In this document: in pieces, positions 53,845 to 55,000 of the stretch
Position numbering within the stretch: position 1 is the first letter of the stretch
Layout: every line of letters begins with the position of its first letter
Assembly (NCBI GenBank): GCA_029717555.1
Contig: JAMDHS010000113.1
Coordinates: forward strand, 1 to 60,458
DNA from: Peribolospora baueri
Taxonomy: Eukaryota
Direction: 5' to 3'
DNA: 60,458 nucleotides
Translations under genes and position numbers: made by a program
The notes under the pieces: model-generated
What the model saw: only the letters and a program-made list of their open reading frames with translations
The model's database searches: none
What the model was told of the DNA's origin: nothing

Positions 53845-54358
53845 ATCCAGCATGGACGACAACCTCCTTCAGAAATTCCAAGAACAGCTCCAGCGGCTCG
53901 AAGAGGACAACCAGCATCTGCGAGATCAGCTCCAGCAACATCAATCCCCCACTCCCATGGCGGGCTCCACCCTGCGCCTCTAGGATTACGCTCGTCAAAT
54001 CGACAAGTTCGCGGGAGACCGGACCAAGCTCGCCGGGTTCCTCTATAAGGTCAAGCGAGCCTTCACAACCTTCCCGGGGAGTTTCCCTACGGATGGTGTC
54101 AAGATTAGCTGGACCATTCCCTTCCTGGTCGGACGTGTGCGCCCTGGACGAGAGCACTCCCAGGCCCAAGGAGGACGATGCCTGAAAGCTTGCTGGTCCT
54201 TTCAGCACCTGGGACCGGTTCGAGGAGGCGCTTTGCGCCCACTTCCAGCCGGTGAATGAGCGCCGGACGTACATGGATCAGTGGAACGACCTGCGGCAGA
54301 CCGGGCCTGTCGCCGACTACATTACCAAGTTTAGGTCGCTCCAGGTCCACATACAGGC
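53845..54358 (+). mobile_element. Degenerate Ty3/gypsy gag fragment (copy A, + strand)
   Basis: Reads MDDNLLQKFQEQLQRLEEDNQHLR..*..DKFAGDRTKLAGFL..FPTDGVKISWTIPFL..TWDRFEEALCAHF..WNDLRQTGPVADYITKFRSL. These are gypsy capsid motifs (FxGD; W..F...L; LRQTGxVxDYxxKF) with an in-frame TAG and a frameshift. Confidence 0.85.
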
Positions 54359-54399
54359 TCCTCTCGGGCTGAGGTATTGCCCGTTGGTACAGACCTCGG

Positions 54400-55000
54400 G
54401 GGTTGCTGTGGTGTTGGTCCAGAGCTCTGGACTTGACTCCGCTGGAACTGACGCTGGTGTCCGCCAGTTGCAGGAGCCGGTCAAGGTTCTCCGCTTGGGG
54501 AAGCAGCATGAGGGTGTTCCGAACGTGGTCCTTGAGACCACGCTCGAACCGGTCGATGGCGAGAGATGGGGGATCCTGGACGTGAACCTGTAGTGACCAA
54601 AAGTGGGCGCAAGGCGCCTCCTCGAACCGGTCCCAGGTGTCGAAAGGACCAGCAAGCTTTCAGGCATCGTCCTCCTTGGGCCTGGGAGTGCTCTCGTCCA
54701 GGGCGCACACGTCCGACCAGGAAGGGAATGGTCCAGCTAATCTTGACACCATCCGTAGGGAAACTCCCCGGGAAGGTTGTGAAGGCTCGCTTGACCTTAT
54801 AGAGGAACCCGGCGAGCTTGGTCCGGTCTCCCGCGAACTTGTCGATTTGACGAGCGTAATCCTAGAGGCGCAGGGTGGAGCCCGCCATGGGAGTGGGGGA
54901 TTGATGTTGCTGGAGCTGATCTCGCAGATGCTGGTTGTCCTCTTCGAGCCGCTGGAGCTGTTCTTGGAATTTCTGAAGGAGGTTGTTGTCCATGCTGGAT
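54400..55000 (-). mobile_element. Degenerate gypsy gag fragment (copy A', - strand) with an internal deletion
   Basis: Same 5' part as copy A, then jumps from AHF directly to WSLQVHVQDPPSLAIDRFERGLKDHVRNTLMLLPQAENLDRLLQLAD (capsid C-terminal F..GL motif), lacking the LRQTG segment. Confidence 0.8.

Follow-up and report, generated by a model that had tools for sequence, protein, structure and literature searches.

Can two dead copies of a retrotransposon gene that face each other act as a source of small interfering RNA (siRNA), or is such an arrangement a scar of DNA rearrangement that has no function? This question is raised by positions 53845–55000 of the 60,458-nt window analysed here, which is one contig (C15) of a 22.7-Mb genome in 668 contigs (G000). 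These positions hold the sole inverted repeat with at least 60 aligned bases in the window, originally predicted to be a retained silencing trigger against a gypsy family. That Dicer cuts the stem of a hairpin RNA and that its products are loaded by Argonaute, with no need for an RdRP, is established RNAi biology. In Naumovozyma castellii, the palindromes that give rise to siRNAs reportedly derive largely from Ty remnants, a finding attributed to Drinnenberg et al. in 2009.

Results

The arms of the repeat (53845–54244 and 54601–55000, 400 nt each) are, as described in the original prediction, 99% complementary, with four mismatches around a 356-nt spacer. All four mismatches are transitions (53858/54987, 54204/54641, 54205/54640 and 54232/54613). 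Both arms carry the two lesions described before, a TAG codon at 53981–53983 (mirrored at 54862–54864) and a change of frame near 54137–54139, and also a second common stop at 54183–54185 that had been overlooked. RNA folding predicts a continuous 400-bp stem of −1074.6 kcal/mol, a value calculated without a shuffle control at such length; by its predicted fold, the locus has the long, near-perfect inverted repeat expected of a hairpin-siRNA locus.

Raw-read unitigs from two runs of organism A (X1 and X2), either of which is possibly from the source DNA of the assembly, show that the inverted repeat is a real structure. The 345-bp identical core of the arms is a single unitig at about twice the single-copy depth in both runs (188.8 compared with 86–92 in X1, and 247.6 compared with 106–112 in X2), and each of the two arm–spacer and two flank–arm junctions lies under unitigs with no differences in X1 and X2. 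This support is given junction by junction; which way round the spacer lies between the flanks is taken from the assembly. An assembly or amplification artefact, which the 99% identity of the arms and the lack of a spanning unitig among those listed might suggest, is extremely improbable and was dropped: the core has two-fold depth, both runs contain unitigs that match the junctions exactly, a diverged organism B (see below) shares the outer junctions, and the arms of other repeats in the class are 76–96% alike.

The locus consists of two convergent copies of one Ty3/gypsy-type gag gene, both dead. The left arm is the 5′ part of the first copy on the plus strand and begins 8 nt upstream of an ATG at 53853; this copy continues into the first part of the spacer (54245–54363, plus strand), which is 87–89% identical to paralogs on contigs C636 and C317. 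A Pfam scan matches Retrotrans_gag (PF03732, E=3.3e-9) to positions 54186–54362, extending through this part of the spacer and identifying the copy as a Ty3/gypsy-type gag relic; Ty3_capsid (PF19259, E=0.0011) matches the same positions below the cut-off. On the minus strand, the right arm is the 5′ part of the second copy, with its ATG at 54992 and the lesions of the left arm. This copy runs from 54992 through the right arm, which ends at a net 87-nt (29-codon) deletion, seen as a 29-residue gap relative to the copy on C636; beyond the deletion it picks up again at 54598 and extends to 54367. The second part of the spacer (54367–54598, minus strand) is thus its C-terminal part, 82–83% identical to the paralogs on C317 and C636. 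Since both copies continue into the spacer, the spacer is entirely gag.

Past the deletion, the two copies overlap in a stretch that has escaped homogenisation (54334–54363 on the plus strand, homologous to 54569–54598 on the minus strand; 23 of 30 positions identical), so that the copies differ at 7 of 30 positions there, compared with 4 of the 400 arm positions (Fisher p=1e-6). The earlier description of the arms as internal, dead gag sequence holds, and neither Pfam nor genome searches matched them to an LTR family; two corrections are needed: gag makes up the spacer too, on both strands, and additional retroelement fragments lie in the right flank. The two gag pieces had no match in protein databases, and PDB sequence searches, in which one query was a frame lacking the RT motif, had none either.

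Joined to the right arm is a piece from the N-terminal part of a gypsy-type reverse transcriptase (RT; 55003–55090, minus strand), frameshifted and with 14 of 15 residues identical to an RT locus on contig C13 (E=3.6e-8). Its upstream piece, in another frame, matches weakly (E about 0.5), and the frame scanned has no Pfam match. Further out, positions 55250–55335 (plus strand) are probably a fragment of a second gag, unlike that of the arms; this lead comes from Atlas neighbours that include Ty3_capsid and Retrotrans_gag clusters at 0.80–0.86, under the 0.9 level, and the segment has no Pfam match. The left flank contains a tandem duplication of ~100 bp (53631–53787, plus strand; 80% over 56 nt), one unit of which is missing in organism B (joint 53692>53792 in X3 and X4); neither the genome search nor the fetched loci gave a match to this flank. 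Elsewhere in the window, a 53-nt piece at 55453–55505 is 87% like C439:164959–165008, and two tandem 110-nt copies at the window end (60239–60458) are 92% alike.

Two standard element types were ruled out. The locus lacks the set of two LTRs, a target-site duplication and an open gag-pol of an intact LTR retrotransposon: it has stops and a frameshift, a left flank with no match and just a short RT fragment. Neither is it a foldback element or MITE, as the arms are internal gag and the whole unit is single-copy. A stretch of purines with TG after it, at ~53810–53825 (minus strand), resembles a polypurine tract at an LTR start but was left unassigned, since the motif is absent from every fetched transposon locus and the flank is without a paralog.

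As originally placed, the locus lies between two genes on the minus strand. To its left is a Sec7/PH-domain gene (47879–53269; PF01369, E=9.7e-26), whose two open reading frames are probably one gene split by an intron and whose promoter region abuts the left flank. To its right is a sugar porter gene (55980–57990; PF00083, E=1.7e-38). The homologs of the Sec7-domain protein are from basidiomycetes, at 34–44% identity, which makes the host a basidiomycete; the best named match is Cystobasidium minutum, and the host is possibly, by a weak placement, within Pucciniomycotina. About 600 bp separate the left arm from the beginning of the Sec7/PH reading frame, and the sugar porter stop is ~1 kb upstream of the right arm, distances at which small-RNA-guided chromatin or the DNA structure itself could act in cis on the Sec7/PH promoter or the 3′ end of the sugar porter gene. 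However, that this would be the main role of the repeat is very unlikely, considering that many unrelated loci have similar repeats.

To place the repeat in time, we turned to organism B, represented by runs X3 and X4 of one study under an organism label other than that of A; comparisons with B rest on a unitig graph and are made among the pieces and differences listed. The left flanks of A and B differ in X3 at 13 of 893 positions (~1.5%) among the differences listed. In both X3 and X4, a left-flank contig enters the left arm and a right-flank contig starts inside the right arm. Since both flank–arm junctions are present in organism B, the repeat appears to predate the split between A and B, and the conservation for which the original prediction had proposed a check extends to a second organism.

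In X3, a 159-bp unitig shares an overlap of exactly 30 nt with each of two others, a left-arm unitig (53881–54007) and a right-flank unitig (from 54838, mirrored). The 159-bp unitig has five differences from both arms of A, and its depth is ~1.4 times single copy in X3 and ~1.9 times in X4 (derived from bin means). All listed contigs of B have letters other than those of A at both stop codons, and at least two contigs each in X3 and X4 carry extra letters at the frameshift site. The outer part of the right arm of B has substitutions and insertions of its own, so that the arms of B are less alike there, and B also holds a further paralog, ~87% alike.

An old repeat from whose counterpart in B the lesions seem to be missing points to arm-to-arm homogenisation as the origin of the 99% identity; both the shared ancestry of the repeats and this homogenisation we infer from the unitig graph. 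On this reading, the 99% identity reflects the age of the last homogenisation and not that of the repeat. The stops and the frameshift very probably arose once, after the A/B split, and were then copied to the other arm, as judged from the listed pieces of the graph, from one study, in an organism that also carries the ~87% paralog. Of the two possibilities offered in the original prediction, ongoing homogenisation is therefore favoured and an inversion arising after gag had died is disfavoured, as the arms of B seem free of the lesions.

Homogenisation of inverted repeats is described in the accessible text of PMC8604942 as a known, neutral DNA process. As with template switching and gene conversion (PMC8604942, PMC3820800), the arms here have been made identical and inversion of the spacer is possible, but the abstracts of those studies concern short repeats, whereas the tract here spans 345 bp or more, and the copying has apparently carried stops and an indel from one arm to the other. 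Taken singly, the locus would be a clean example from nature of inverted arms evolving in concert. Conservation of the arms between A and B above background was not detected (5 of 159 positions differing in the arm against 13 of 893 in the flank, p=0.17).

The locus has many counterparts. Every locus recovered in the searches for gag, RT and integrase was scanned (5 of 35 RT matches gave no locus), and inverted repeats with at least 100 aligned bases were counted, where the arm of a self-palindrome is about half the aligned length. The controls, 120 windows of similar size cut from 40 ten-kb stretches at round coordinates on 8 large contigs, were mostly genic. Long inverted repeats were present in 11 of 41 retroelement clusters, with this locus excluded, against 4 of the 120 controls (odds ratio 10.6, p=6e-5), and in none of 30 motif-centred loci. 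Two of the four control repeats (L089:4478–4774, L095:8757–9039, L099:8010–9240 and L121:8890–9649) are copia-type retroelement relics by Pfam (copia gag PF14223; PF22936); of the other two, one is similar to a repeat next to an RT locus, while one has no assignment and is integrase-like by eye alone. Extrapolation from 4 loci in 400 kb gives ~230 in the genome (62–580), suggesting that the class numbers a few hundred genome-wide.

Two other places with the gag family of the arms are also fold-backs. One is at C636:27021–27397, and the other is a nested 2.3-kb palindrome (C317:162701–165056) with arms 84–87% alike, which from translations read by eye appears to join pieces of several retroelements in both arms (this gag, two other gag-like sequences and RT). 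An RT self-palindrome of 1.4 kb (C273:18796–20171) has ~670-bp arms, 95% alike over the alignment. Further retroelement inverted repeats, 76–100% alike over aligned pieces, lie at C96:373–1640, C664:26240–27527, C373:41387–43952, C635:150986–156952, C13:39058–39984, C21:11033–11966, C66:257384–257844, C665:24487–24896, C656:10140–12489 and C27:37099–37379. Repeats of another kind were also seen. Two equal-scoring RT matches at C68:6197–9646, on the same strand 2.7 kb apart with open frames of ~850 residues, are a possible tandem array of a young element. A retroelement-rich region of C636 contains an exact 170-nt tandem duplication (35035–35372) and a degenerate tandem array (38575–39116).

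Dicer and Argonaute, for which the original prediction had suggested a search, are both encoded by the host at the level of domains, in the expected order. Domain matches along contig C175 give N, L1, PAZ, L2, MID and PIWI in order for Argonaute, and those along C110 give a dimerisation domain, two RNase III domains, a dsRBD and a weak DEAD match for Dicer; the domain search detected no Dicer PAZ on C110. An RNase III match on C641 was rejected as Dicer, being a mitochondrial mL44-like protein instead.

Two family searches and a motif scan gave no RdRP, although the gene could be interrupted by an intron or fall in a gap of the assembly and so be missed. PF05183 and PF25358 had no matches in the genome, in searches where no positive control gave a match. 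The degenerate DxDGD scan gave 40 matches, 25 of them with a non-hydrophobic middle residue; of the other 15, three are of the RNA polymerase NADFDGD type (two confirmed by Pfam), and 12 translated matches are unlike RdRP, with no family found in the four of these 12 that were scanned with Pfam. Since Pucciniomycotina have 1–5 RdRP genes in the accessible part of the funRNA table of PMC4290597, a true loss would be notable.

The intact target element anticipated by the original prediction did not emerge: the arms have no close intact counterpart, with three other matches in the genome (the best 91% over 79 nt) and one other in a protein search of the genome, counts that are lower bounds in a 668-contig assembly. 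Of 380 21-mers from the arm, 10 are found again in the fetched loci, a set that covers a small part of the genome. Transitions in 19 inverted-repeat loci would produce G·U pairs in 110 cases on the plus and 109 on the minus strand (heterogeneity p=0.40), and thus give no sign of selection on an RNA from one strand, in a comparison of low power.

Discussion

We give about an even chance to the locus being a transposon-relic hairpin of the type of the N. castellii palindromes and of maize Mu killer, which would yield siRNA upon read-through transcription. An old, convergent pair of gag relics from one gypsy family would be held near-identical over 400 bp by DNA copying from arm to arm (gene conversion or template switching), with copying halted at the deletion in the right gag copy, and the locus would be one member of a genome-wide class of transposon-relic palindromes. 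A transcript across both arms, arising by read-through from the sugar porter gene or divergently from the Sec7-gene promoter, would fold into a 400-bp stem to be cut by Dicer; its products would be loaded by Argonaute, RdRP not being needed, and the resulting siRNAs would be directed against the gag family of the arms.

Nearly as likely is a neutral fold-back or rearrangement scar, from which any RNA or siRNA is negligible. This fungus would make inverted duplications often, and they would last only where the DNA is dispensable, as in transposon relics, with template switching or gene conversion keeping the arms alike. Such a scar explains all of the sequence data equally well, since neither homogenisation nor survival in dispensable DNA requires a function. 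It agrees with the G·U pairs having no strand bias, with the genome DNA and protein searches finding no close live target, with arms diverging between A and B at the background rate and with flanks that are a scrambled mosaic; fold-backs that merely survive in dispensable DNA would also produce the enrichment seen over controls that are mostly genic. However, of the four control repeats, none proved to be ordinary unique spacer, and the structure seems to be older than the A/B split and to have lasted ever since, even though the accessible text of PMC3855049 describes long inverted repeats as fragile sites.

Precedents for an siRNA-yielding hairpin come from three systems. In N. castellii, palindromic loci account for 74.1% of classified siRNA reads, as given in the accessible part of one report (10.1101/2019.12.12.873604), and another gives stems of 100–400 bp with loops of 19 to over 1600 nt in its accessible part (PMC7343710). 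The stem and loop described here fall inside these reported ranges, many loci are present per genome in both, and Dicer and Argonaute are present with no RdRP found so far. In contrast to N. castellii, the host here is a basidiomycete with a canonical-type Dicer, the locus is known from DNA alone and homogenisation of its arms is indicated by comparison with a relative. Maize Mu killer is, in the accessible text of PMC3440606, a partial inverted duplication of a transposon gene with transcription proposed to arise as read-through from a neighbouring gene; the partial duplication and the proposed read-through are common to both. However, Mu killer is one locus, derives from a DNA transposon and silences active MuDR, whereas the gag pair here is from a retroelement, is one of many such loci and has no active target found. 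In Puccinia striiformis, also a basidiomycete, homologous copies lie tail-to-tail as long inverted repeats that yield siRNAs, representing 14 of 33 gene-associated small-RNA loci in the accessible text of PMC4578785. Its loci overlap predicted genes, with evidence of expression cited for the four that are illustrated, and siRNAs have been mapped to them, in contrast to a dead gag seen here in genomic DNA only. The accessible parts of PMC7175516 and PMC7084138 hold no direct precedent, and a literature search that most subscription papers lay outside gave no paper directly reporting palindrome sets of this kind for basidiomycete yeasts.

If the class proves to be a source of siRNA, it would represent a route to double-stranded transposon triggers in a fungus without RdRP; if not, the genome would carry an unusually high load of fold-back relics for a compact fungal genome. 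A broader proposal, which we consider rather unlikely, is that the host has lost RdRP and keeps a few hundred relic palindromes, from gypsy and copia at least, as a self-repairing hairpin-siRNA memory, in which arm conversion would preserve pairing through drift, converging on the budding-yeast solution. In this archive, some of the hairpins, such as the one on C317, would join pieces of several families.
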